DNA from: Wickerhamiella versatilis
Lineage: Eukaryota
DNA: 64,000 nucleotides
Direction of reading: 5' to 3'
Assembly: GCA_030867685.1 (NCBI GenBank)
Contig: JAQOWU010000001.1
Coordinates: 744,001-808,000 of the forward strand
A program made the position numbers and the translations under genes. Shown here piece after piece: positions 3,687-62,185 of this stretch (its first letter is position 1; each line of letters opens with the position of its first letter). The notes under the pieces were generated by a model. That model had not been told where the DNA came from. It saw only the letters and a program-made list of their open reading frames with translations, and searched no databases.

Positions 3687-6143
3687 ATGAGACGAATGGG
3701 GCTTAAAGCACCTTCAGCGCTTTTTTCGGCTGTAGTGCGTGGGTTTGCGTCTAAAGTGACGCAGTCTGCGGCAGCTGGTACTGGTATGCATAATGGGTTT
3801 GATCCTAAAAGTGTTGAAAATCTCAGTACACGAGAACGCGATATTGTTGAGAAACGTCAGAAGCTCCTCGGGCCATCTTATCAACTAATGTATGAGCGGC
3901 CTGTCGAGATTGTTCGCGGTAAGGATGTTTACATGTACGATAATGATGGAAATCCGTATCTGGACTGTTACAACAATGTAGTATCAGTAGGCCACTGCAA
4001 CCCTCGGGTTATCGAGGCTGTTACGAAACAGATGTCCACTTTAAACACTCATACACGCTATATGGGTGAGAATATTTTGAACTATTCTGCTCAACTTCTG
4101 TCTACTTTTGAAAAAGAGCTTGGTCGTGTTATGTACACATGCAGCGCTAGTGAGGCAGTAGATCTTGCTTTAAGGGTAGCGAAATTCAACTCGGGGGGTA
4201 CTGGTATCATTGTGACTGATTATGCTTATCATGGCACAACAGACCGTGTTGCCGCAATTTCATCCACCGGCGGTAAGTATGTACCACTGGACGTTGCTGT
4301 CCGCACTGTGCGTGCGCCCGACTCATACCGCTGTGATGATGTTGAACAGCGTTTGGCAGATGATATAGAGGCAGCAATAGCTGATATGGAGAGACATGGT
4401 ATTAAGTTCGCTGGATTCATAGCAGATATGGTCTTCAGCACAGACGGTCTGCTCACAGAGCCTTGTGGATTTCTCAAGAAAGCCCGAGAGGTTGTGCACA
4501 AGCATGGTGGTATATTCATTGCTGATGAAGTTCAACCAGGCTTTGGTCGTACAGGTACACACATGTGGGGCTACCAGCGTCATGGAATAGTGCCTGACCT
4601 GGTCGTGATGGGAAAGCCGATGGGTAATGGTATCCCCATTGCTGCCATGGTAGCGCGTCCGGAGCTTTTGGAAGAGTTCGGTGATAAGATCCGTTACTTC
4701 AATACTTTTGCAGGCAACCCCGTCTCAATTGCTGCGGCACAGGCAGTGCTCGATGAGATTCAGGGTGGACTTTTGGAGAACTGTCGTGAAGTTGGTGAAT
4801 ATTTGCTTAACGGCTTTCGAGAAATATCTGCTGAATATCCAGAATGTATCGGTGACGTACGTGGCGCTGGTATGTATTTTGCCGTGGAGTATGTCAAGGA
4901 TCCGATCTCCAAAACACCTGACAGTGAATTGGCAGCCAAGGTAGTTAGTGAACTACGAGATCGTCGAATTCTTATAAGCACCAGTGGTCCCGAAGGAAAT
5001 TCACTCAAGATCAGACCTCTTATTTGCTTCAAGAAAGAGCATGCTGATCAACTCCTTAATGGCTTTGCTGAAACAATGGAGAAACTATGCGGCAAACCAC
5101 ATGATCCTGTAGATACTCTTGGTGCGACAGCAGCAAAGCAAGCCTTACTTAGCCCTGAAGTAGCTATTTACACGTTGAAAAATTATTACGGAATTGATGC
5201 TGTGGAAGCTAAAAAACTAGGAAGCGAGAGAGATCAGACATTCCGTATAACAGTTTCAGACGGAAGTAGGGTGCTCGCAAAATTTGCGCATCCTGCGGAG
5301 GACAGATTGGTGACGAATCTTCAGACTTCTATTTTGCGGTATATTGAAGAGAAAGATCCATCTCTTGGCGTCCCCAGAGTAATTCCGGCACTTTCAGGTG
5401 AGCTTGAGCCATACATAGACTGTGAGGGCCAGATGCGCACGGTAGTGCTTCATTCCTTTGTTGAAGGTACCATGCTCTTGGATGCACCACATTCAGTACG
5501 CCAGAGCTACAATCTGGGAGTGGAGGCAGGAAAACTTGCTAAGGCTTTGGAAGGATTCAGGCATCCAAAGCAGGATCTTGTATTATCTTGGGACCTTCAG
5601 CATGCCTCTCTACTTCGTTCCTATATGAACCTTGTTGAAAGTCCAGAGAATTATCGGAAACTTGAGCTTTGCATCGAAAACTTTGAAAGAGAAGTAAAGC
5701 CGCGCTTAGGCTCGCTAAGGAAGCGGGTTGTTCACAATGATCACAGCTTCCATAATGCTTTTGTCAACCCTGAAGCTCCTGATGAAATTGTGGGAGTTAT
5801 AGATTTTGGTGATGCCGTATCAACTCAGGTCATCAATGATGTAGCTATTGGCGCCTATTATCAACTAGGTGTTGGTGGATTGCTCGATGGTGCTTTGGCA
5901 TTTGCCCGGGGATACAATGATGTAGTGCCCTTGAGTAAGGAGGAGCGAGGTCTTCTTTTCGATCTGATCTTGACACGACTCTTTGTGAGCATCATCAATG
6001 GACTTTGGCGGGCCCATGAGGCACCTGAGAATAAGGACTACCTGTTGCGACTAGCAGGTCATGATTGGAAGCATCTAGATGCTCTTATGTCTTTGAGACC
6101 TGAAGAAGGACGGGAGAAGTTTGCTAGTTTAGGTGAACACTAA
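3687..6143 (+). CDS. Fusion: class-III PLP aminotransferase/phospho-lyase (N) + APH/hydroxylysine-kinase-like phosphotransferase (C), with putative mitochondrial presequence
   Basis: N domain: YLDCYNNV, LNTHTRY, FIADEVQPGFGRTG, MGKPMGNG, LKIRP. C domain: GSERDQTF, HNDHSFHN, GVIDFGD. Arg/Ala/Ser-rich, acid-free 33-aa N-extension. Confidence 0.85.
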   Translation: MRRMGLKAPSALFSAVVRGFASKVTQSAAAGTGMHNGFDPKSVENLSTRERDIVEKRQKLLGPSYQLMYERPVEIVRGKDVYMYDNDGNPYLDCYNNVVSVGHCNPRVIEAVTKQMSTLNTHTRYMGENILNYSAQLLSTFEKELGRVMYTCSASEAVDLALRVAKFNSGGTGIIVTDYAYHGTTDRVAAISSTGGKYVPLDVAVRTVRAPDSYRCDDVEQRLADDIEAAIADMERHGIKFAGFIADMVFSTDGLLTEPCGFLKKAREVVHKHGGIFIADEVQPGFGRTGTHMWGYQRHGIVPDLVVMGKPMGNGIPIAAMVARPELLEEFGDKIRYFNTFAGNPVSIAAAQAVLDEIQGGLLENCREVGEYLLNGFREISAEYPECIGDVRGAGMYFAVEYVKDPISKTPDSELAAKVVSELRDRRILISTSGPEGNSLKIRPLICFKKEHADQLLNGFAETMEKLCGKPHDPVDTLGATAAKQALLSPEVAIYTLKNYYGIDAVEAKKLGSERDQTFRITVSDGSRVLAKFAHPAEDRLVTNLQTSILRYIEEKDPSLGVPRVIPALSGELEPYIDCEGQMRTVVLHSFVEGTMLLDAPHSVRQSYNLGVEAGKLAKALEGFRHPKQDLVLSWDLQHASLLRSYMNLVESPENYRKLELCIENFEREVKPRLGSLRKRVVHNDHSFHNAFVNPEAPDEIVGVIDFGDAVSTQVINDVAIGAYYQLGVGGLLDGALAFARGYNDVVPLSKEERGLLFDLILTRLFVSIINGLWRAHEAPENKDYLLRLAGHDWKHLDALMSLRPEEGREKFASLGEH

Positions 6144-21896: not shown

Positions 21897-22290
21897 GGTT
21901 GATTATTCTCAACCAAGAGGGAAGATACTTATAGAGAAGAATGTCGAAATAACGTAATTTATACTACTATGACTAAATGGCGCACGCGATAGTTCCTTTG
22001 AGTCATATCCAAGTACGACATCTGGCTTAGTGAGCGGGTGATCAATCACGTGTATTTCTGACATTTTGGGCAGTTGGAAGCGGCATGTCATAAAACTACG
22101 GAGCGGCGAGTACTTAGCTTTTAGATCAGTTTTAATTCTTGGACTAATATTATAGTTATTACATGGTCAATAGTGTCCCTAGTATTCCACATATACGAAT
22201 CAGATTGATATCTCGAATCATCCTGCAGGTCACTTGAAAACCTTTCATTTTACTTCTACCTCAGAAGAATTTCTCTCCTGTGTCTCGCGT

Positions 22291-43766: not shown

Positions 43767-44438
43767 TCATTCATCAACAGTAACAAGGGCAAACCCATCC
43801 CAACCTTTACTCCCTACCGTCTGAATCACAGTTGCGTCTAGTCGGGGGTCTTCCTTTACCGCATGTAGGAATTTCTGAGCACCATTGACTCTACTATCGA
43901 CGCTTTTTTCATCCGCAACGCCACCGCTACGTACCACGTTGTCAGCGACTATCACCGTACCTTTGCGGGAAAGGCGGAGTACCATAGGTAAGTAGTTAGG
44001 ATAATTCTCCTTATCGGCGTCAATGAATATAAAATCATAAGGTCCATTTAGAGTAGGGAGGATTTCAAGTGCATTGCCACCCAGAACTTCCACCTTATCT
44101 GTGACACCAGCAAAATCAAGGTTAGATTGAGCTACCTTAGCGTGGTGTGGACTATATTCGATTGTCGTAATCTTACCCCCGGGGGGTAAAGCCTTTGCCA
44201 TCCAAATAGTGCTATATCCACCAAGCGTTCCAAGCTCTAGTACTCGCGATGCCTTCGTCATTTTAACATATTGAGCAAGAAGCTTACCTTGTGGCGCAGA
44301 AACATCGATAGCAGGAAGGCCCTCTGCTTTATTTGTTTCCAGTACTCGCTCCAAATGCCGATCGTTGGGGATCAAAATATCTGTCACATACCGGTCAACT
44401 TTTGACCATTCGTCTGATTGCTGTGGCATTCCTTGCAT
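43767..44438 (-). CDS. SAM-dependent O-methyltransferase (caffeoyl-CoA/catechol OMT family)
   Basis: VSAPQGKLL, VLELGTLGGYS, FIFIDADKENY, VADNVV, KGWDGF. Confidence 0.85.
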   Translation of the reverse strand: MQGMPQQSDEWSKVDRYVTDILIPNDRHLERVLETNKAEGLPAIDVSAPQGKLLAQYVKMTKASRVLELGTLGGYSTIWMAKALPPGGKITTIEYSPHHAKVAQSNLDFAGVTDKVEVLGGNALEILPTLNGPYDFIFIDADKENYPNYLPMVLRLSRKGTVIVADNVVRSGGVADEKSVDSRVNGAQKFLHAVKEDPRLDATVIQTVGSKGWDGFALVTVDE

Positions 44439-44625
44439 AGATTGGATGAGGTAAGATTGATTGTAAGTTCCATGTGGGGAAATCTCCTAAGTGGAATACA
44501 TAATAGTTAACAATTTTTATGAGCGGATATGTGAAATACTACTATCTATTAATCAAGCATTTAAACGAACTCGTTCCCTTTGATATTCTTACATAGCACT
44601 ATAATCGAATCTGCGTTCATTTCTT

Positions 44626-50051: not shown

Positions 50052-51094
50052 AAATCCATTGACCAGAGTGGATATACCGCGATTCTTCATCTTCTACATC
50101 TAAATACGTTTCAAATTGAATATATCATATAATTACGGCTCTAGTATATATATACATCATGAGTCACGCGCGTATATGCCACATGTCTTTACTATTGAGA
50201 TTACTAGCTAATAGATATGTTTGTTCGAGTCTAAGTGAAGTCCGTATACTAGGTGATGAGCGTGTATCCAAAGCTATCATCTATTTGAGAAGTACTGAAG
50301 GGATAGAGAAGTCAATTCTCACCAAGTGTCTACTAAGCCTTAAATTTGATCAAAAATCTTCTCTCATTCACCAAAACATCAGAGGTTTTCTTAGTATTTG
50401 TGCTACTCTGATAAGAATGGCCACTTAAATTTAAAATCGTCAGAACTACCGAGTTTGACGTGGACATAACAGTGCTCCAAAGAGAGAGTTAGACTCAAAA
50501 GACGGCATAATTAAATGGGCATATATCTAATTGCTATCTTTTAACTCACCTTGGATGAATTAGTTTTGGATCAAAAAAATAGCCCAAAGACTTCTGATAA
50601 CAAGCTATCTCTTATGTAGAATGAAATTTCAACATGATGGTCAGAATGAATATGGCTAGAGTTATTGGCTTCATGAAAGTGCCCTATTAATTTAGGATGT
50701 GGAAATAAGGTTCATATGTATACAGCGAAAAAAGTTCTTGTCGTCTTAAAAAAAAATACATTTGGTACTGCAATAGCATCAAATATTAAATAAGGCTCAC
50801 AGAAGGAATTTTTAGAAAAACATATGTATGATGTAATAAATAATAAATGATTCAAGATTGCCGATCGTATCTTTTTCATCTCATAAATATGTGATCGAGC
50901 TAATATGGACGTAGACTGTAGATACTAGAACAAAAGCATACGAAAATCAAATGAAACTATCAGAAAATACGTACTTTAGTCCTCATTCAAAACAATAATG
51001 TATTATTGTTTCAAAACGTGCGAAAACTTTCAACCCTGACAAAACCTGCAGATTATTAATCTAAGTCTCGGGTGTCTACCGTCGCTGAATTCAG

Positions 51095-51940
51095 ATGATT
51101 CCTAAACTTGCTTCCTATGAACTCCCTAAATCAGAGGAAATTCCTCGTGGAAGAGTTGATTGGCCTTTAGAACCTGCTAAGGCTGCGCTGCTCATACATG
51201 ATATGCAAGACTATTTTCTAGACTTTTGGGGTGAAGACAGCCCTTTCACAAAGTCTTTGGTTCAAAACATACAACGTTTAAAGGAGTTCTGCAAGTTGAG
51301 AGATATCCCTGTCTATTACACCGCTCAACCAGCTGAGCAAAGCCCAGAGGATAGAGCGTTACTGAATGATATGTGGGGTCCGGGGATAGCGACTCGGCCA
51401 CACCGAAAGAATGTTACCAAGGCCTTAGAACCGCAAGAAAACGATATTGTATTGACCAAGTGGCGCTATAGTGCATTTCAACGTTCGAACCTGGAAGAAC
51501 TACTCAAGAAATCAGGTCGTACTCAGTTAATTATTTGTGGCGTTTACGCGCATATTGGCTGTATGACAACTGCACTCGATGCATTTATGCGCGATATAAA
51601 GCCTTTTCTGGTGGCTGATGCATTGGCAGATTTTTCGAGAGAGAAGCACATCACAGCTTTAGAAATCGTAGCCGGATCCTGTGGAAGAGTGATCAAACTG
51701 GATAACGTGGTTGGCGGTCTACCTCAGAGCATAGAAGAATTACGCGAGCAAGTCCTAGTGTTGCTTGATGATGAAGATGAGGCTCCAGAAAATGATGAGA
51801 ACCTCGTGGACTTTGGGCTGGATTCCGTCCAAATTATGGCCACGGCTGCCAAGTGGCAGAAAATCAAACCGGAGATAGACTTTATCAAGCTCGCCCAGAA
51901 TCCTAGTATTACTTACTGGTGGTCCCTTTTACAAGATTAG
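51095..51940 (+). CDS. entB: Isochorismatase / aryl carrier protein
   Basis: IPKL, LLIHDMQDYF, DRALLNDMWGPG, KWRYSAF, GVYAHIGC, DAFMRDI; ArCP FGLDSV. Confidence 0.95.
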   Translation: MIPKLASYELPKSEEIPRGRVDWPLEPAKAALLIHDMQDYFLDFWGEDSPFTKSLVQNIQRLKEFCKLRDIPVYYTAQPAEQSPEDRALLNDMWGPGIATRPHRKNVTKALEPQENDIVLTKWRYSAFQRSNLEELLKKSGRTQLIICGVYAHIGCMTTALDAFMRDIKPFLVADALADFSREKHITALEIVAGSCGRVIKLDNVVGGLPQSIEELREQVLVLLDDEDEAPENDENLVDFGLDSVQIMATAAKWQKIKPEIDFIKLAQNPSITYWWSLLQD

Positions 51941-52172
51941 ATTCAATGCGGCAGCAAGCGAATTCTCTTGTCTGCTATAACATAGCTTTTCTTTTTGTGG
52001 AGAATATTTCTCTTAAAGACAAGGATCACATGTGAACATAGTCCGTGTACGTCTGTCTACATACTTCAACCCACCAGATATTTTAACGACTGGCATATAG
52101 GCGGTTAGGCTTAGTAAGGTATCTCTTACAGACATTGTAGATGCTACGATTGCTATTGAAGAGCCAGGCAGA

Positions 52173-52895
52173 ATGAGTATTTTCGACCCCATAAATTCAT
52201 CAGCTTGTGATGAGCTTATTCAAAAAATCGAATGGGGTACTCTTGTATCCCATCCGCAAGTTTACTATTGCAAGGTCAACTTTAATGATTCTGCCTATGA
52301 TGACGACCACTACTCCAATTACGGTATTGAATATCCCAGCCACATTAGGCGTTCTGTATTGAAGCGACGTGCCGAGCATCTGGCAGGCCGGTTCTGCTGT
52401 CAATATCTTTTTCATGCACTTCAATTACCGGGTGCTGTTTCACACCACGAGGATAGGTCACCCTGCTGGCCTCCAGGAGTCGCAGGAAGTATTTCACATT
52501 GTAAAGGTCACTCCATCGCCCTTGTAACTAATAAGCAGGATAAGCATCCTGGCGTGGATGTCGAAATTCTGGATAAGCAAACCCTCAGTGAATGCGCAGA
52601 TATGTTTTCCTCCAATGATGAACGAAACATGGTAAGACGAAAACTCGACTCTGAGGCTCACAAAGAACTCCTTATTTTCTCTGCGAAAGAAAGTTTTTTC
52701 AAGGCAGTTTATCCACAGGTGAAGTTTTTTTTCGGTTTTGAATATGCTACCATAGTAGATGTTAATGCTGAAAAAAAAACATTTATATTAGAATTAACTA
52801 AAACGTTGATACCAGCGAGATTGGAGAAAGGAATGCACTGGGTTGGAAATTTCAATATCGAAGGCGAGCTTATTACGACATGTATAGTGTGCTAA
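52173..52895 (+). CDS. entD: 4'-phosphopantetheinyl transferase
   Basis: KRRAEHLAGR, WPPGVAGSISH, GVDVE, FSAKESFFKA; position in ent cluster. Confidence 0.9.
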   Translation: MSIFDPINSSACDELIQKIEWGTLVSHPQVYYCKVNFNDSAYDDDHYSNYGIEYPSHIRRSVLKRRAEHLAGRFCCQYLFHALQLPGAVSHHEDRSPCWPPGVAGSISHCKGHSIALVTNKQDKHPGVDVEILDKQTLSECADMFSSNDERNMVRRKLDSEAHKELLIFSAKESFFKAVYPQVKFFFGFEYATIVDVNAEKKTFILELTKTLIPARLEKGMHWVGNFNIEGELITTCIVC

Positions 52896-53074
52896 ATTTC
52901 TAATTCGGGATAGAGATTAAAAAAAGCAGCATTATAATTTTTCATTTCATTTCATTTGATTTTGTCCTATGTCTCATCGGCACACAGCATTCCTCTGTTT
53001 CATAACGACGGTAACCCTAAGCCTGAAGATTGATTATCCAATAAATCTATCGGACAAATCAATCTTTTTGGTCA

Positions 53075-56000
53075 ATGGCATTGCCCCTTGTGGCAGCGCA
53101 ACCAGGAATCTGGGTAGCTGATCAGCTATCCCCCTATCAAAATGCATATATGATAGCTCACTACTTGGATATTCTTGGTGACTTGAATGTCGATGCTCTC
53201 TGCGCGGCCATAATGAGTGGTATGATGGAGGCAGACACCTTACAGATGCACTTCACAGAAGTAGATGGAGAGCCTAAACAAATACCTATGGGCCCGCTGT
53301 TACTTCCCTCGCCTATATATAAGGACTTGCGCGCTGATGTTAATCCTCTTCATTCGGCACATGCGTGTATGTATGATGATTTGAAAGGCAATAGGCGGCT
53401 GATGACTGGGAATAATCTCAGTTGTAACGTAATATTACGTCTAGATGAGAGGCATTATGTCTGGTACCAGCGCTACCATCATCTCCAATTAGATGCGTTC
53501 AGCTTTACTGCTTTGACTCGTCGTATCGTGGAGCTTTATAGTGCGTCTGTGAGAAATTTGGAACCCAGAATGACCCCATTTGTGCCTTTTGCAAACGTAG
53601 TACAAGAGTATGCCTCGTATTGGAATTCTGAGAAGAGATTTAAAGATGCAGCATATTGGACAGGCGTGTGCAAATCTTTGCCAGAAGCTGTATCTCTTTC
53701 GCCCAGATCTCTAAGTGGAGAGACTCCGACAACAAATATTTTGCGACATGCTACTACATTTGATCCCAGTACAATGCGTACCCTGTTCTCAGCTGGCGAG
53801 GCAGCTGGCATAAGAAGTGTTGACCTTGTGCTAGCTATAATTGCTCTTTGGCTGTTGAAGCTTTCTGACAGTAAATCTATGGGTGTTGGATTTATATTCA
53901 TGCGTAGAGCTGGTTCAGAAGCATTGAATGCTACTGGGCCAGTAATTAATGTTCCACCTATGTGCGTAAGTCTGTGTGAGACTATACTCTCAATGGCGAA
54001 AAATATAAATAAGACTATCAAGGAAATGCGTCGTCACCAACGCTACGATGCTGAACAGATTGTGCGGGATACCAAACGCAGCTGGGATAGCGAACCCCTG
54101 TATGGTCCTGTGATTAACTTTAAGGCTTTCGATTATAAACTCGACTTTTCGGGGGTTAAATGCACTACGCATCATTTAGCTTCAGGACCAGTACGTGATA
54201 TGGAAATCACCATATTCCTTGACGACGAGGCGAATTGCTCGGTAGAGATTCTTGCCAACGCTCAACGGTATAATACAGATATTCTGGAGAAACATCTAAA
54301 CCGACTTCACCTCCTGGTGGATCAATTTGCCACCAATATTGACCTTTCGTGCGAAAAGGCTGATGTATTATTGCCTGAAGAGAGAAAATTAATCTCTGAG
54401 ACGAATTCAACCGAGGTGCCAATTTCGAAGGATACGCTTGCCAGCCTCATTCAGAAGCAATGGCTCGCCACACCAGAGAGTCCTGCATTGCAAGACATGC
54501 GACACTGTTTGAGTTATAGGCAGATGATGCTACAGGCTAATTCTTTGGCGCAGTGTTTGGTAACGCGGGGTATTAGTCCAGGAAGCATTGTTGCCGTGGC
54601 ACTGCCCCGCTCCATATTTTTAGCAGTTGCTTTACAAGCAATAATTCTAGTTCGTGCGGCTTGGCTTCCGTTGGATACGGGATACCCAGAATCACGGTTA
54701 AAGTTCATGCTTGAAGATGCACAACCGTCGCTTCTGATCACAAATACCGATGAGCTCAGCAGAATATCATTTGCTGCACCAGTCGAAACGTTTATATACG
54801 ACTCATTGCTCCCAGAAGTGGAATCATTATCACTTCCATCTGTCAAACCGGATGATAGGGCATATATAATTTATACGTCAGGTTCTACTGGTCAACCCAA
54901 AGGGGTAGTTCTCAACCATCAAGCGATAGTCAACCGATTGCTGTGGATGCAAGATCAATATGGTCTCAAAACGCATGACAAGGTGTTACAAAAGACTCCA
55001 TGTAGTTTTGATGTCTCAGTGTGGGAATTCTTCTGGCCAATAATCGTTGGTGCTCGTCTGATAATGGCACCACCAGAAGCGCACCGCGATCCAGAGCAGC
55101 TTCAGAAGCTTATATTGGACCATCAAATAACCACGATTCATTTTGTTCCATCAATGCTGGCGTCTTTTGTTAATGTTTTGGGCCAGAATCAGGACTGTCA
55201 AAGTCTTTCACGTGTATTCTGCAGCGGTGAAGCCCTTTCAACTGACTTGGCAAAACAATGGCAAAATAAAATGCATGTTCCATTATACAATTTGTATGGG
55301 CCGACCGAAGCAGCGATCGATGTTGCTTTCTATCCTGCTTTTGGTGCCAGTCTGGAAGCAGTAAGTACCCATACCGTGCCTATTGGAGTACCTGTTTGGA
55401 ACACATCACTGCATATATTAGATTCACATTTATGTCCAGTTCCTCTCGGGATTATTGGTGAACTCTACATTGAGGGGGTGCAACTCGCAAACGGGTACCT
55501 GAATAGATCCAGCCTGACTGCTAGCTCCTTTATTAAAACTCACGTCGACAAAATACTCTATCGTACTCATGACTTATGCCGGCGATTGGACAGTGGGTCC
55601 ATTGAATTTATTGGCCGAAGTGATCACCAGGTTAAGATTCGTGGACAGCGTATCGAGCTCGGTGAGATAGATCAAGTAATGCAGCATCTTGATGGTGTTT
55701 TGCAGGCTGTCACTGTACCACAACTTTTAGGAAAGTATAAAGAGGGTGATTTTCATGATGGACGGCAGCTAGTGAGCTATGTAGTTCCAGCAACCGACAT
55801 CAAGCTTGACGCAGAAAAACTACTTAGGGAAGCAGCACGGTTCTTACCATCGTATATGGTGCCATCAGTACTCGTCTTTATGACTGAACTTCCTCTAGGA
55901 AACACAGGAAAGCTCAATCATCGGGCCTTACCTCTTCCAGATATCAATTGGCAACAGCAGCATAGGGAAAATGGACGTCTTCCTAATGCTGGCTTAGAGC

Positions 56001-57001
56001 AAGTGGTTGCTAATGCATTTAAAACTTTACTTGGTTGTGAAACTGTTTTTGCAGATGATGATTTTTTTTCCCTTGGTGGCCATTCGCTTCTCGCAGTACG
56101 CTTAGCTGCATTATTGCGGCAGGAATTGAAATTGCCTGTTGCTATTGGGCAAATAATGCAATCATCTAAAGTGTCAAGCTTAGCTGCACAATTGAGCGAT
56201 ATTGAGAACCAAGAAGCTTGGGAAAACGCAGGATATGAGACTCTTTTACCATTTCGAGTTAGTGACGATGATAGTAAGGGCCCAACATTATTCTGCATTC
56301 ATCCTGCCTCGGGATTTGCGTGGCAGTTTAGTATTCTCCAACGCTATCTGGAAAAGAATTGGTCTATTGTAGGTGTTCAATCGGCCCAGTCCGATGGACC
56401 TCTTGCTACTACTGCTTCATTGACTGACTTGATCGAGTCTCGATATGAAGCTATCCGCACAAAGCAGAAGCACGGCCCGTACCATTTGATTGGTTACTCA
56501 TTGGGGGGAACAATAGCTCATGGTGTGGCTGCTAGACTGAGACAGTCAGGCGAAGTAGTGGCGTTTCTAGGATTGCTCGACACTTGGCCGCCAGAGTCTC
56601 AGAACTGGGACGAAAAACTTGGTAAAAATAATGTGGATCAGGCTGTAATTGATGAAATGATGCGTGAAAGGCAGGAGTTTTGTCAAGCTCAACAGGGTTT
56701 GTTCGATAATTCAGAAAAACTTTTCAACGTTATTGAGAATAACTATGCCAGTGCAGTGCGATTACTTGCCACTGCTCGTAGTAGCTATTTTGATGGCAAA
56801 GCGACTTTATTCGTTGCTGAGCGCACATTACCTGCCAATGTCGACATTAAGGATGTCTGGTCTCCTTGGAATAGGCAGCTGGAAGATCTTACGGTCGACT
56901 GTTCACATGTAGATATAATTTCACCGGCAACATTTGAAACCCTCGGCCCGCAAATCGCTGAAGTTTTACGAGCTAAAGAAGAGGCATCAAAGCTGGCTTA
57001 A
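53075..57001 (+). CDS. entF: Enterobactin synthetase component F, NRPS C-A(Ser)-T-TE
   Basis: LPLVAAQPGIW, RYHHLQLDA, YTSGSTGQPKG, FDVSVWEFF, LYGPTEA, GGHSLL, HPASGFAWQF, GYSLG, HVDIISP. Confidence 0.95.
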   Translation: MALPLVAAQPGIWVADQLSPYQNAYMIAHYLDILGDLNVDALCAAIMSGMMEADTLQMHFTEVDGEPKQIPMGPLLLPSPIYKDLRADVNPLHSAHACMYDDLKGNRRLMTGNNLSCNVILRLDERHYVWYQRYHHLQLDAFSFTALTRRIVELYSASVRNLEPRMTPFVPFANVVQEYASYWNSEKRFKDAAYWTGVCKSLPEAVSLSPRSLSGETPTTNILRHATTFDPSTMRTLFSAGEAAGIRSVDLVLAIIALWLLKLSDSKSMGVGFIFMRRAGSEALNATGPVINVPPMCVSLCETILSMAKNINKTIKEMRRHQRYDAEQIVRDTKRSWDSEPLYGPVINFKAFDYKLDFSGVKCTTHHLASGPVRDMEITIFLDDEANCSVEILANAQRYNTDILEKHLNRLHLLVDQFATNIDLSCEKADVLLPEERKLISETNSTEVPISKDTLASLIQKQWLATPESPALQDMRHCLSYRQMMLQANSLAQCLVTRGISPGSIVAVALPRSIFLAVALQAIILVRAAWLPLDTGYPESRLKFMLEDAQPSLLITNTDELSRISFAAPVETFIYDSLLPEVESLSLPSVKPDDRAYIIYTSGSTGQPKGVVLNHQAIVNRLLWMQDQYGLKTHDKVLQKTPCSFDVSVWEFFWPIIVGARLIMAPPEAHRDPEQLQKLILDHQITTIHFVPSMLASFVNVLGQNQDCQSLSRVFCSGEALSTDLAKQWQNKMHVPLYNLYGPTEAAIDVAFYPAFGASLEAVSTHTVPIGVPVWNTSLHILDSHLCPVPLGIIGELYIEGVQLANGYLNRSSLTASSFIKTHVDKILYRTHDLCRRLDSGSIEFIGRSDHQVKIRGQRIELGEIDQVMQHLDGVLQAVTVPQLLGKYKEGDFHDGRQLVSYVVPATDIKLDAEKLLREAARFLPSYMVPSVLVFMTELPLGNTGKLNHRALPLPDINWQQQHRENGRLPNAGLEQVVANAFKTLLGCETVFADDDFFSLGGHSLLAVRLAALLRQELKLPVAIGQIMQSSKVSSLAAQLSDIENQEAWENAGYETLLPFRVSDDDSKGPTLFCIHPASGFAWQFSILQRYLEKNWSIVGVQSAQSDGPLATTASLTDLIESRYEAIRTKQKHGPYHLIGYSLGGTIAHGVAARLRQSGEVVAFLGLLDTWPPESQNWDEKLGKNNVDQAVIDEMMRERQEFCQAQQGLFDNSEKLFNVIENNYASAVRLLATARSSYFDGKATLFVAERTLPANVDIKDVWSPWNRQLEDLTVDCSHVDIISPATFETLGPQIAEVLRAKEEASKLA

Positions 57002-57185
57002 TTCCATCTCCAAACTGCGTAAATAATTTTTTTGATATTAGAAATGGCTGTAGAATCTAAATTAGAATATCCGTTTTTGACGTGATTTATGCCGGTCGGT
57101 GAAAACAATGTTTCAGGGCTGCAGGGAAGGAAGCTGCTAATAAAAGTGTATCTCATCAATCTCTGACTAATATTTTACCGGCCCG

Positions 57186-58376
57186 ATGAGCGCATCCTCT
57201 TCAATACCGTCTTCCTCTTTATCTTATTCACCTGATGATAAGTTTTATCTTATATCTCCTACACGCAAGATAGTTACAGAGGGCTGTTTCAAACGGATTT
57301 GCACTCCAGCGCAGGATGCTAGCGACTTGGACGGTGAGTTTCAATGTTCACTCAAGAATGCTCTAGAGGAAGCCAAAGCTGCAGGTATTGAAGAGCCGTT
57401 GGTTGTTGGTGCCGTACCATTTGATGTAACGCAGCCATCTGCACTGTTCATCCCGAATTCCTGGCGGTCGCTTAGCGTCGAGGAAGTCCATGCTTATGGG
57501 GCGAAGCAAAAAGACTATGCCATCGAACTTCTTTCTATCGATTCGATACCTGACCACAACAAATTTTTATCGATTGTCAGCGAAGCTATTGACAGAATCA
57601 CACATGAGGGACTTAAAAAAGTTGTCTTGTCACGATTACTGGAAATACAGGCAAAGAATAACGTCGATAGTGAGGCTCTTCTGGGCCGCTTAACCATGCT
57701 AAATAGCACTGCCTACAATTTTCGCGTGCCACTACCTGATGGTGGGTACTTGGTTGGATCGAGTCCAGAATTGCTGGCCAGCCAGCAGGGAGAAAAGTTT
57801 ATGTCTATACCGCTTGCTGGAACGGCAAAACGTGATTCTCGAGATTGGGTGAAGGATACAGCGGTTGCTCAAGGGTTATTGTCGTCACAGAAAGATCGAT
57901 ATGAGCATCGATTGGTCATTGATTCCATGCGTGAAACCCTAGAAAGTAGTCAAAAATTTACCGAAATGCAATTCCCCGACACCCCTAAGTGTATATCGAC
58001 ACCAAAAGTCTGGCATCTTGCTACCGAGATTGCTGGTTCACTGGTTAATAGCTCCGACAACGCCCTCTCTCTCGCATGTTTATTACATCCTACACCGGCT
58101 CTCAATGGGTTTCCTCATGATGTTGCACGTAAAATGATTTCTGAACTCGAACCGTTTAACCGAGAGTATTTTGGTGGAATTGTTGGATGTTGCGACGCGA
58201 AAGGAGATGGAGAGTGGGCCGTAGCTATCCGTTGTGGAAAAGTTAAAGATGATAAGATACGTCTTTTTGCTGGTGCTGGTATCGTAGGAGACTCGATTCC
58301 TGAATCTGAGTGGCGGGAAACAGGCATCAAACTTTCGACAATGTTACATGCATTTGGGCTTCCACCCAAAGAATAA
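57186..58376 (+). CDS. entC: Isochorismate synthase
   Basis: VGAVPFD, KVVLSR, GSSPELL, PLAGT, KDRYEH, WHLAT, LHPTPAL, IRC, FAGAGIV.DS.PESEW.ET. Confidence 0.95.
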   Translation: MSASSSIPSSSLSYSPDDKFYLISPTRKIVTEGCFKRICTPAQDASDLDGEFQCSLKNALEEAKAAGIEEPLVVGAVPFDVTQPSALFIPNSWRSLSVEEVHAYGAKQKDYAIELLSIDSIPDHNKFLSIVSEAIDRITHEGLKKVVLSRLLEIQAKNNVDSEALLGRLTMLNSTAYNFRVPLPDGGYLVGSSPELLASQQGEKFMSIPLAGTAKRDSRDWVKDTAVAQGLLSSQKDRYEHRLVIDSMRETLESSQKFTEMQFPDTPKCISTPKVWHLATEIAGSLVNSSDNALSLACLLHPTPALNGFPHDVARKMISELEPFNREYFGGIVGCCDAKGDGEWAVAIRCGKVKDDKIRLFAGAGIVGDSIPESEWRETGIKLSTMLHAFGLPPKE

Positions 58377-58568
58377 AAACATATTCACTACTTAGATACA
58401 GAAGTAAAGAATTATATAGAATTGATTTGAATTTCGTAGAGAGTCGGATGGTGCCAGATGCTTACGAACTCGGTGGAGGCCGATAGGTCAAGATTGATTT
58501 GATACTACCCTAGTCCATCACGTGATTAGGCTACACAGTACCTGGGCGTGGCTACCGTTCGTTACCTA

Positions 58569-60185
58569 ATGGTTATTCCTTATTGTCGATGGCCTAAGAA
58601 CGAAGAGGCTAAGTATGAAGCTAAAGGATATTGGGCTGGTCTCCCCTTATGCGACATCGTCACTAGGCGGTCTGAGGATGACAACACCGCAGTGATAGAT
58701 GGTGATCGGAGATTAAGCTACCGCCAGCTAGATCATATGAGCAGTTGTCTGGCTAGTTCGTTGCAGAAGCAAGGTTTGAAACAAGGAGATACCGCTATAG
58801 TTCAGCTGTCTAATAACTACGAGCTATACGTTGTCTTTTTTGCCTTATTAAAACTTGGAGTGGTATTAGTTAACGCTCTCTTCAGCCATCGCCAGCTCGA
58901 ACTTGAAGCTTATGCTGACCAAATTCAGCCTAGGTTGTTAATTGCAGATAGGGGTCATGCCATTTTTCATGACAATTCTTTTGTAGACCATTTGCGGACG
59001 GTATCGCCGGGGCTTCACGTCACACTTTTTCGTCAAGAGACCCGCGATAGTAGTCAATCGCTTGACGCCTTCATGGAAGGTTCAAAGGCAGAATTCTCAT
59101 CCTCACCAACTCCTGCTGATGAGGTGGCATTTTTTAACTTGTCAGGCGGCAGCACTGGTACTCCAAAGCTCATTCCCCGCACACATAATGACTATTATTA
59201 CAGCGTTCGTCAAAGCAACGTGGTCTGCAGAATAACTGAGGCAACCCGATTCTTGTGTGCAATTCCTGCTGCGCACAACTTCCCAATGAGCTCGCCAGGG
59301 GCTCTAGGTGTATTCTATGCTGGTGGCCAAGTAATAATGGCCCCAGACCCCAGCGCTACAAGCTGCTTTCCGCTTATAGAGCACCACAAGGTTAATTTGG
59401 CCTCACTGGTGCCAACTGCGGCTAGTTTGTGGCTTCAACAAGTAGACCAGACGGGAAATGGCAGTTTACGTTCTCTCGAGCTACTACAGGTCGGTGGTGC
59501 ACGACTAAGTCCAGTTTTGGCCGCAAAACTCTCGAAGACCATTGGTTGTAAGCTACAGCAGGTTCTTGGGATGGCGGAGGGACTGGTAAATTACACTCGC
59601 CTAGATGATGATGAGAATCATATTTTTACTACCCAAGGCTATCCGATGTCGCCAGACGATGAAGTCTGGGTGGCAGATGTAGAAACTGGAGAGCCTCTAC
59701 CACGTGGAGAGGTTGGTCTGCTCATGACCCGAGGACCATATACGTTCAGAGGGTATTATAAAAGCCCAGAGCACAATGCAAAATCTTTTGACGCTCAAGG
59801 CTTTTATTGCTCTGGTGACTTAATCGCCATCTCGGAAGATGGATACATCACTGTACACGGGCGCCAAAAGGATCAGATTAACCGGGGAGGAGAAAAGGTA
59901 GCGGCTGAAGAAATTGAGAACTTATTGTTGCGCCATCCTGACATCATCGAAGCTGGCATTGTGGCAATCGTGGATGACTTGCTGGGTGAGAAGAGTTGTG
60001 CTTTCATTATGGTGCGTAAGCCAGTAAAGCCATCTCAGCTTCGAAGGTTTCTCCGGGACCAGGGAATTGCGGAGTATAAGTTACCTGACAAGTTCCAGGT
60101 GGTGCCTGAGCTCCCTCTTACTGCAGTTGGCAAGGTTGACAAAAAAGAGCTTCGTTTACAACTCCCCGATAGCTTAAGAGATTGA
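58569..60185 (+). CDS. entE: 2,3-dihydroxybenzoate-AMP ligase
   Basis: [72 protein letters not shown] 58569. Confidence 0.95.
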
Positions 60186-60301
60186 ACTAACTTAATCTTA
60201 GTGAGTAAAACGATCACAGATTGATTAGATTAAGACTCCACCTAGACAACCAGCTCTTAGTCACGTTTGGCGGAACCGACGAGTAAAACAATATTTCACC
60301 A

Positions 60302-61063
60302 ATGACGACAAAGTTTGACTTTGCGGGTAAAAAGGTTTGGGTCACAGGCGCTGGTCAAGGTATTGGATACGTAGTTGCAACCGACTTTCACAAAGCAGGT
60401 GCGGTGGTTACAGGCTTTGATCTAAAATTTCACCCCGACACTGAATATCTGTTCGATACTCGAGAGTTGGATGTTGCAGATCCGGTTCAGGTCAAGTCAG
60501 TCACTGAGCACTTGTTAACGACGAGCCCTGGTCTAGATATCCTTGTAAATGCGGCGGGTATATTGAGGATAGGTCAGACAGACGAAGTATCGTTCCAGGA
60601 CTGGCAGCTTTGCATCAACGTGAACGCTGGAGGCGCCTTTAATATGTTCCAGCAAACGCTTCCCGTATTTCGCCACCAGCGTCATGGTGCAATCGTCGTG
60701 GTGAGCTCAAATTCCGCACATTCACCACGACTCGGAATGTCTATTTACGGAGCTTCTAAAGCAGCATTGCGCAGCCTGTGCCAGACAGTGGGCCTTGAAA
60801 TGGCACCTTACGGTGTCCGATGCAATATGGTCTCTCCTGGATCAACCAATACTGAAATGCAACGTAGCCTATGGAAAACACCTGACGGCGAGTCACAAAT
60901 GATTGCCGGTTTTCCGGAACAATTCAAGCTGGGAATTCCGCTAAGAAAGATCGCTCAGCCAGAAGAAATTGCGTCAACAGTGATGTTTTTAGCCTCGGAT
61001 GCAGCGAGTCATGTGACTCTACAGGACATTGTCGCCGATGGCGGGGCAACACTGGGCGCCTGA
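60302..61063 (+). CDS. entA: 2,3-dihydro-2,3-dihydroxybenzoate dehydrogenase
   Basis: KVWVTGAGQGIG, NAAGILR, YGASKAA, SPGST, FKLGIPL.KIA, DGGATLGA. Confidence 0.95.
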   Translation: MTTKFDFAGKKVWVTGAGQGIGYVVATDFHKAGAVVTGFDLKFHPDTEYLFDTRELDVADPVQVKSVTEHLLTTSPGLDILVNAAGILRIGQTDEVSFQDWQLCINVNAGGAFNMFQQTLPVFRHQRHGAIVVVSSNSAHSPRLGMSIYGASKAALRSLCQTVGLEMAPYGVRCNMVSPGSTNTEMQRSLWKTPDGESQMIAGFPEQFKLGIPLRKIAQPEEIASTVMFLASDAASHVTLQDIVADGGATLGA

Positions 61064-61085
61064 TGCCAAATGACAAATATCGGTT

Positions 61086-61496
61086 ATGATCTGGAAACGT
61101 ACTAGTGATGTGGAAAAGCTCAATGCCATGTCCCCTGGAACCATGATCGGACATCTGGGCATCAAATTTATTAGTTCGGATGATGATACACTGGTGGCGA
61201 CTATGCCTGTAGATTCACGAACGTGTCAACCCTTCGGGCTGCTACACGGCGGGGCTTCAGCGGTATTAGTGGAATCCCTTGGATCCTTTGCCAGTTGGCT
61301 TGCTACCCCTGAGGGGAAAAATGTTGCCGGGACTGAGGTCAATGCTAGCCATGTGCGAGCGGTTTTTGGTGGAGAGGTTGTTGGGGTGTGTAAATCTCTT
61401 AGTCTAGGCGGTCGCCAACACGTTTGGTCTGTCATGATTTATGATGATAAAAATCATTTATGCTGCTGTGGCCGATTAACAACAGCTATAATATGA
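61086..61496 (+). CDS. entH: Proofreading hotdog thioesterase
   Basis: MIWKR, MPVDSRTCQPFGLLHGGAS, E.NASH. Confidence 0.9.
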   Translation: MIWKRTSDVEKLNAMSPGTMIGHLGIKFISSDDDTLVATMPVDSRTCQPFGLLHGGASAVLVESLGSFASWLATPEGKNVAGTEVNASHVRAVFGGEVVGVCKSLSLGGRQHVWSVMIYDDKNHLCCCGRLTTAII

Positions 61497-61681
61497 TGGT
61501 TGACGTGTGATATCACCAAACAAAATATAGGCAGTGCTTCAATAACGTATTTGGTTTAAACCAGTTATGTGGGCTATTTTTGCATTGTCCAACAAGCAGT
61601 CTCAGGTAACGTGATGATGCCTTGTGGCACAACTATTATATACCGTGTGGGATGTAATAGGAATCTACATAAATATCTTTG

Positions 61682-62185
61682 CTACGCTGCGCACTTTTTA
61701 TGTGTGCCCTCTAGTAGATCTTGCAACGAATCAACAACGCTATGCTGCCCAAAGTGGTGCCTCCAAAGTCTGCTTCCCATATCTGCAGACCGGTCCAAGG
61801 ACGAGCCCATAGTGAGCCACTTAAGCAAAGTTGGCTGAAGGCCCGCGTCAAACAACATGAAGCCTACGCAAAGGCAACAGGCATCAGTTTGGATGCCACA
61901 GACATACACCTTACCGACATTTCTCGACTTCAAATGCTGAATCAGGGCATATGGTGGCATATATCCATATTTTATAAACATAGCATCTGTTTTAATTAAC
62001 GGATCATCATTAAAGCCTTGCGGCTTCCAGCCGAGTTGCTTTTCAAAAGGGGTTACCTCCTCATTATACCATTCGACGGTTGAGACACTATAGAATTTAT
62101 CACGAACAACTTCAATTTCCATTATCAGCTGTTGCGACGGATGAAAGCTCTGCTGAACGTCAACGACCAGCAGAGCTTCCTTCAT
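61682..62185 (-). CDS. Cysteine hydrolase (isochorismatase superfamily), bacterial type
   Basis: LLVVDVQ (Asp), FIKYGY (Lys), CGIQTDACC (Cys), LFDAG; ATG 62185. Confidence 0.75.
   Translation of the reverse strand: MKEALLVVDVQQSFHPSQQLIMEIEVVRDKFYSVSTVEWYNEEVTPFEKQLGWKPQGFNDDPLIKTDAMFIKYGYMPPYALIQHLKSRNVGKVYVCGIQTDACCLCVGFMLFDAGLQPTLLKWLTMGSSLDRSADMGSRLWRHHFGQHSVVDSLQDLLEGTHKKCAA

Follow-up and report, generated by a model that had tools for sequence, protein, structure and literature searches.

The transfer of the enterobactin (ent) genes to the Wickerhamiella/Starmerella (W/S) yeasts is well known; what remains open is how such a captured bacterial operon came under eukaryotic control. Kominek et al. 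(bioRxiv 10.1101/399394) reported that most W/S ent genes have a promoter and a poly(A) site of their own, although entE-A-H show some overlap. Since the cluster and its per-gene promoters are known from that work, the open question is a short word shared by the spacers between the ent genes, which we studied in 64,000 nucleotides of Wickerhamiella versatilis (GCA_030867685.1, contig JAQOWU010000001.1, positions 744,001 to 808,000 of the forward strand; hereafter the window). The genes have separate transcript starts, the spacers arose after the transfer, and they have in common a word that exceeds chance and possesses a near-private long form. Judged from its sequence, the word is a credible candidate element in a known system.

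Regarding the regulators, the iron-GATA repressors SreA, Fep1, Urbs1 and Sfu1 bind ATCWGATAA (PMC2610380), CBC:HapX binds the bipartite site CSAAT-N12-RWT (PMC7144946), and the GATA-like factors Ash1 and WC-2 bind YTGAT and YCGAT respectively (PMC5311114). We found no report of a shared element in the literature on W/S ent genes, operon transfer or Wickerhamiella cis-motifs, and looking for the word itself brought up a single, unrelated match; the Cell 2019 version or the bioRxiv supplements of the work of Kominek et al. may hold a motif analysis. The accessible portion of their preprint names no shared motif (the term 'motif' occurs 0 times), and those of PMC13376923 and PMC11952965 do not report the word.

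The cluster and the shared word

The region is the known ent cluster of the W/S yeasts, acquired horizontally from bacteria. Seven open reading frames (ORFs) on the same strand, between 51095 and 61496, were assigned by Pfam to entB, D, F, C, E, A and H, and the entA-F homologues are co-linear on one strand of a yeast genome and nearest to Enterobacterales. EntE is 56-67% identical to most of the relatives listed, the named ones being enterobacterial, and 77% identical to the best one. The host genome (9.88 Mb) is eukaryotic and encodes GATA, Hap4-like, FTR1 and ferric-reductase genes. The C. versatilis layout of Kominek et al. has the same genes, entH and a nearby class II asparaginase, all of them present here too, and a mean spacer of 158 bp compared with 154 bp in the window, where the entB-entD spacer has 232 bp and the entA-entH spacer 22 bp. 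The genes are as follows.

51095 to 51940, plus strand: entB (isochorismatase), from the ORF and Pfam
52173 to 52895, plus strand: entD (phosphopantetheinyl transferase), from Pfam; motif absent from the spacer upstream
53075 to 57001, plus strand: entF (nonribosomal peptide synthetase, C-A-T-TE), from Pfam and RNA reads
57186 to 58376, plus strand: entC (isochorismate synthase), from Pfam and RNA reads
58569 to 60185, plus strand: entE (DHB-AMP ligase), from Pfam, relatives and RNA reads
60302 to 61063, plus strand: entA (dehydrogenase), from Pfam
61086 to 61496, plus strand: entH (thioesterase), from Pfam and RNA reads; motif absent upstream

The 8-mer AGATTGAT occurs five times in the ent spacers, in either orientation: as AGATTGATT at 53027-53035, 58491-58499 and 60218-60226, as AATCAATCT at 53057-53065 and as ATCAATCT at 57155-57162. 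The inverted pair ahead of entF, with CCAAT at 53038 between its copies, is unique genome-wide. These positions, as well as that of a palindrome before entB, had been given in an earlier note on this DNA, and each of them proved exact. The note had also placed its sites within ~85 bp of an ATG and had expected fewer than 0.1 copies by chance in ~670 bp of spacer; we measured starts 18-84 bp ahead of an ATG and a Markov expectation of 0.036-0.046 in the 671 bp of the four spacers. The 8-mer is absent from the entB-entD and entA-entH spacers, and within the window it is also found outside the cluster, at 22202, 44454 and 63292. AGATT alone is in excess in the ent spacers (13 vs 3.3 expected).

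As the word was picked after the fact, we let the choice of word be free and asked how often four or more of seven spacers have some 8-mer in common, using length-matched regions from 181 real upstream regions (the loci around motif matches, the iron genes and the window, not a random genome sample) or Markov sequence. This happened in 46/15000 and 50/15000 real-upstream draws, with the motif masked and unmasked respectively, and in 57/15000 Markov draws. The probability of such sharing by chance is about 0.003-0.004, small yet not negligible.

Ahead of entC, entE and entA the flanks also agree and the word extends to AGATTGATNWGAT, which has 4 copies in the 9.9-Mb genome, 3 of them in these spacers. 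The fourth copy of this G form sits within a lipase-like ORF; a genome search with AGATTRATNWGAT gave 9 matches, 4 with G and 5 in the A form. Since the 13-mer, too, was chosen post hoc, we corrected for this by a test that tolerates mismatches and covers six spacers. Of 2500 null draws, 2-39 equalled the sharing of a degenerate word at width 13 and 4-31 did so at width 17 (P 0.001-0.016). A single shared cis-element, as the earlier note had supposed, is therefore likely, and it is longer than was noted. The region upstream of entB contains two 2-mismatch 13-mer sites plus the palindrome. ATTGATNWGAT, without the leading AG, was rejected as the word, being unspecific (93 genome matches). The sites are listed below.

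50878 to 50890, minus strand: degenerate copy upstream of entB, 2 mismatches, 23-bp alignment with the entA site
51050 to 51062: palindrome AGATTATTAATCT, which spans the entB 5' end (51058) and differs from the 8-mer at 1 base and from the 13-mer at 3
53027 to 53065: three weaker entF sites within 39 bp, at 53027 (the 9-mer, plus strand, differing from the 13-mer at 3 bases) and at 53036 and 53053 (both minus strand, 2 mismatches each)
57150 to 57162, minus strand: 13-mer AGATTGATGAGAT, 19 to 7 bp ahead of the entC 5' end, past the entF 3' end
58491 to 58503, plus strand: 13-mer AGATTGATTTGAT, 73 to 61 bp ahead of the entE 5' end
60218 to 60230, plus strand: 13-mer AGATTGATTAGAT, ahead of entA

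Among 162 background promoters the sole 1-mismatch 13-mer belongs to a secretory lipase (L012:3171-4670), 30 bp ahead of its ATG. A second common word, the E-box-like ACGTGAT/TCACGT, lies ahead of entC, entE and entA (57079-57089, 58517-58529 and 60260-60267); ACGTGAT, counted post hoc, occurs 3 times in the ent spacers vs 0.25 expected. This second word is also present ahead of the ferric reductase just past the window (L045).

Separate transcripts and new spacers

RNA reads from strains about 3-4% diverged were aligned over 50701-61700, and 5' ends were called from adapter-like loose read ends, whose sequence we take to resemble a template-switch oligo. Among the read ends listed, this gave 5' ends for 4 of the 7 genes: entB at 51058 (21 reads), entC at about 57169 (46 reads), entE at 58564 (42 and 34 reads) and entH at 61079 (22 and 27 reads). 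For entF, one read contig starts at 53064 and the mRNA 3' end lies near 57042-57048. The transcripts are thus mostly separate, gene by gene, as the per-gene eukaryotic promoters of the earlier note imply, and as Kominek et al. had concluded before in describing mostly monocistronic ent transcripts. All the mapped 5' ends fall on a step from T to A, in agreement with the pyrimidine-purine rule for start sites (PMC7849388). A TATA-like TAATAAAA is found at about -31 of the entC start, and the entC 13-mer lies downstream of it. This copy is in DNA that is not transcribed, past the entF 3' end and ahead of the entC 5' end, and must therefore act as a DNA element; the mixed orientation of the copies, together with their position, fits a double-stranded binding site.

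In 80 metagenome loci, all of bacterial layout, the gaps between the genes are short, with medians of 4 bp for entC-entE (n=76), 20 bp for entE-entB (73), 9 bp for entB-entA (62) and 5 bp for entA-entH (50). The 8-mer is missing from the bacterial stretches upstream of entC (0/72), entE (0/77), entB (0/74), entA (0/67) and entH (0/50). Such short gaps without the 8-mer indicate that the spacers and the word arose after the transfer, which bears out the installation after transfer proposed earlier. Furthermore, EntE and its nearest relative share just 77% identity, so that unselected likeness between spacers should probably have decayed. Duplication of whole spacers was considered and rejected, because their likeness is confined to 13-31 bp.

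Some further observations concern the transcripts. The entH 5' end is 7 nt ahead of the ATG (61079-61086), within the 22-bp spacer, so that the coding region of entA contains the entH promoter. Loose ends that are adapter-like but of reverse sense, at 53768 within entF (19 reads) and at 52112 in the entB-entD spacer (4 reads), suggest antisense 5' ends in both places. The entB-entD spacer (51970-52160) is transcribed and variable among strains, including a 15-bp deletion in X1.

What the word may do

We propose, with a probability of about 0.58, that the word is a candidate site through which a single host factor acts on several spacers, that this factor is perhaps a finger protein of a non-canonical GATA type, and that the site was built after the transfer. 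Spacers would have grown between the genes after capture, each becoming a small RNA polymerase II promoter, as the 5' ends mapped for entB, C, E and H show for these four genes. A double-stranded tandem-GAT site, AGATTGAT(NW)GAT, is present ahead of entF, C, E and A and, in weaker form, ahead of entB; one host factor would read it and, by keeping expression of the enzymes coordinated, make up for the loss of the single operon promoter. The variable distance and either orientation of the copies support this proposal. Repression by occlusion of the core promoter would be the simplest mode, because the entC, entB and entF sites are on or just ahead of the transcription start. The GAT cores make a GATA-family zinc-finger protein with non-canonical specificity the most probable reader, and the YTGAT and YCGAT sites of known GATA-like factors and the GATA-finger genes of this genome speak for it as well; granted a factor, we put the odds that it is of the GATA type at about even. 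Iron control of the putative site is plausible, again at about even odds. In another species, St. bombicola, enterobactin output rises 6.5-9.6-fold under low iron (PMC11043216); ent terms are absent from the expression tables in the 11 of 16 supplementary files covered of PMC13376923. If the proposal is right, the 13-bp site and the mapped starts offer a direct handle on co-regulation rebuilt gene by gene and on its host factor.

Several results weigh against this reading. When metagenomes were searched with the closest EntE relative, 80/80 loci were of bacterial layout and no yeast ortholog was obtained, and the strain differences listed (40 of 533) are all left of 52630, so that none covers the motif sites in the entF-entA spacers. 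Both entD and entH are expressed with no site upstream. At the level of 7-mers, the same sharing test is not significant (P 0.11-0.13). The 9-mer also precedes unrelated genes (HSP90, a tRNA ligase, ribosomal L13, EF1-gamma), and the iron regulon of the earlier note is not supported: among 13 other iron-type genes (2 FTR1, 1 multicopper oxidase, 10 with reductase domains) the 8-mer precedes just 2, vs 0.58 expected (P 0.12). No 8-mer was found within 1.5 kb upstream of the 5 TRI12-family transporter matches checked of 26.

Regarding the iron genes, the 13-mer precedes 0/13, whereas AGATTRAT is ahead of 4/13 (3 distinct sites) vs 0.93 expected, and one ferric reductase promoter (L051) contains the 8-mer and two 2-mismatch 13-mers. 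DAHP synthase was discarded as a regulon member, its 9-mer overlapping the stop codon with which the upstream gene ends.

The rival that survives best, although unlikely, is chance with post-hoc selection, helped along where slippage or duplication over short local stretches creates GAT repeats in new AT-rich spacers without any function. The corrected probabilities (0.003-0.016) are not tiny for a finding chosen among many windows, and the 7-mer result points the same way. The pairwise likeness of the spacers is marginal (P 0.03-0.11 for the F/C/E/A motif pairs, 0.5 for F-C), and the 8-mer occurs genome-wide at its expected frequency, 445 times (118+143+184) vs 396-599 expected. An apparent genome-wide enrichment over a reversed-pattern control (118 vs 53) was rejected, being explained by word composition. 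Nevertheless, 3 of the 4 genomic 13-mers fall in consecutive spacers and several widths and two background pools agree, and the likeness ends after 13-20 bp and is in mixed orientation.

Rather less probable is that the word is a general promoter word, such as a core-promoter or general-factor site, acquired by the new promoters with no pathway-specific control; even so, it would reveal what new promoters consist of. Outside the cluster we examined 40 of 114 9-mers (3 on an 18%-GC contig were dropped and 71 left out): 24 are intergenic, 14 coding and 2 on a stop codon, whereas words of the same composition are intergenic in 30-37% of cases, a 1.6-2.0-fold excess (P 0.002-0.0001) that favours a general word over an iron regulon. 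Their neighbours include cytochrome c1, GTP cyclohydrolase II and a ferric reductase. Moreover, sense ATCAATCT lies 17-31 bp ahead of the ATG not just of entF and entC but also of a ferric reductase, an O-methyltransferase and one further gene, and the entB, entC and entF copies are at the 5' end. However, the copy ahead of entE has the opposite orientation and lies 61-73 bp upstream, 1-mismatch words have no clear bias of orientation or position (7 vs 5 in -40..-8), and the 13-mer is not general.

The factors named in the earlier note, acting in their known form, are quite improbable: an SreA/Sfu1-type repressor on ATCWGATAA/GATAA or CBC:HapX on CSAAT-N12-RWT. Both kinds of gene are present in the genome, and the entF sites coincide in part with one GATAA and one CCAAT, but the ent spacers contain 0 ATCWGATAA and 0 CSAAT-N12-RWT, and GATAA (1 vs 3.9 expected), CCAAT (1 vs 2.3) and HGATAR (3 vs 5.3) are all below expectation. 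Neither the canonical iron GATA factor nor the CCAAT/HapX-type complex thus finds its site here. The SreA-type sites resemble the word in their paired GAT cores and their association with siderophore genes, and a two-finger GATA gene is present here; they are partial palindromes, whereas here there are direct repeats, GAT-T-GAT-NW-GAT, with no GATAA in 4 of the 5 spacers of the earlier note. In the case of CBC:HapX, the TCAAT core resembles CCAAT and a HapX-like gene exists. The Ash1 and WC-2 sites share TTGAT with every copy; nevertheless, YTGAT alone is not enriched in the ent spacers (11 vs 7.2 expected), and the accessible portion of PMC5311114 gives no siderophore link for these factors.

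ATCWGATAA is also absent ahead of the iron genes (13/13), and the two-finger GATA protein of this yeast may therefore bind a different sequence. Accordingly, a Sfu1-like protein with shifted specificity may be part of the proposed explanation, and the missing ATCWGATAA leaves it unaffected. The two-finger protein is encoded at C7:1280643-1281137, both fingers in one 564-codon frame, with no 8-mer within 1.5 kb upstream of its gene; the genome also encodes long-loop GATA fingers (C1:72945 and C1:255641) and, at C8:1662019, a Hap4-like protein of the HapX type. The Aft1/2 site, YRCACCCR, is absent from the ent spacers, and a genome search for AFT proteins, run without a positive control, was empty.

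The least tenable reading, largely refuted, is that the word descends from the bacterial Fur box or acts in RNA: a hand-over from Fur to GATA control was suggested for the first promoter by Kominek et al., and one bacterial entC promoter (L071) has 11 AT-rich bases in common with the entB palindrome, but at least 9 are in common in just 6/60 bacterial promoters, no bacterial spacer exists ahead of entE or entA, the clear Fur box of bacterial entC promoters (15-16/19 of a 19-bp consensus, in 28/30 of those listed) compares with a best match of 11-12/19 in the yeast spacers, the same as background, and the mixed orientation and untranscribed entC copy speak against RNA. The WGATAA/Fur likeness that those authors suggest concerns the first promoter only, whereas the word described here is not WGATAA and is located in internal spacers.

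A more far-reaching form of the host-factor proposal is doubtful: the yeast would have rebuilt operon-wide control anew, a near-private 13-bp operator-like site arising separately in each newborn promoter, in some on the core promoter, to be read by a re-specified Sfu1-like or an unusual multi-finger GATA protein, and so restoring Fur-like iron repression through distributed eukaryotic sites.

Candidate readers and neighbouring genes

No transcription-factor gene was found among the ORFs of the window. Elsewhere in the genome there are weak GATA-finger matches at C7:152005-153378 (4), C7:214872-215855 (3) and C7:350199-352069 (5, over two frames), which is unusual for a yeast; it is possible that these multi-finger ORFs read tandem GAT sites. 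The first of them has a ferric reductase at a distance of 4 kb and an ARN-like candidate transporter at 8 kb.

Close to the ent cluster, a ferric reductase gene lies downstream, about 4 kb past the window end (L006:1325-3403). An O-methyltransferase (Methyltransf_3) at 43767-44462 in the window, 6.6 kb from entB, has a 9-mer 23 bp ahead of its ATG, and a catechol-modifying role is conceivable for it. An amino-acid permease at L006:4495-6321 is divided between two ORFs, by an intron or a frameshift. Finally, two similar class-III aminotransferase genes are located on either side of the region, at 3687-6143 in the window and at L006:8768-9997, the former with a fused phosphotransferase domain.

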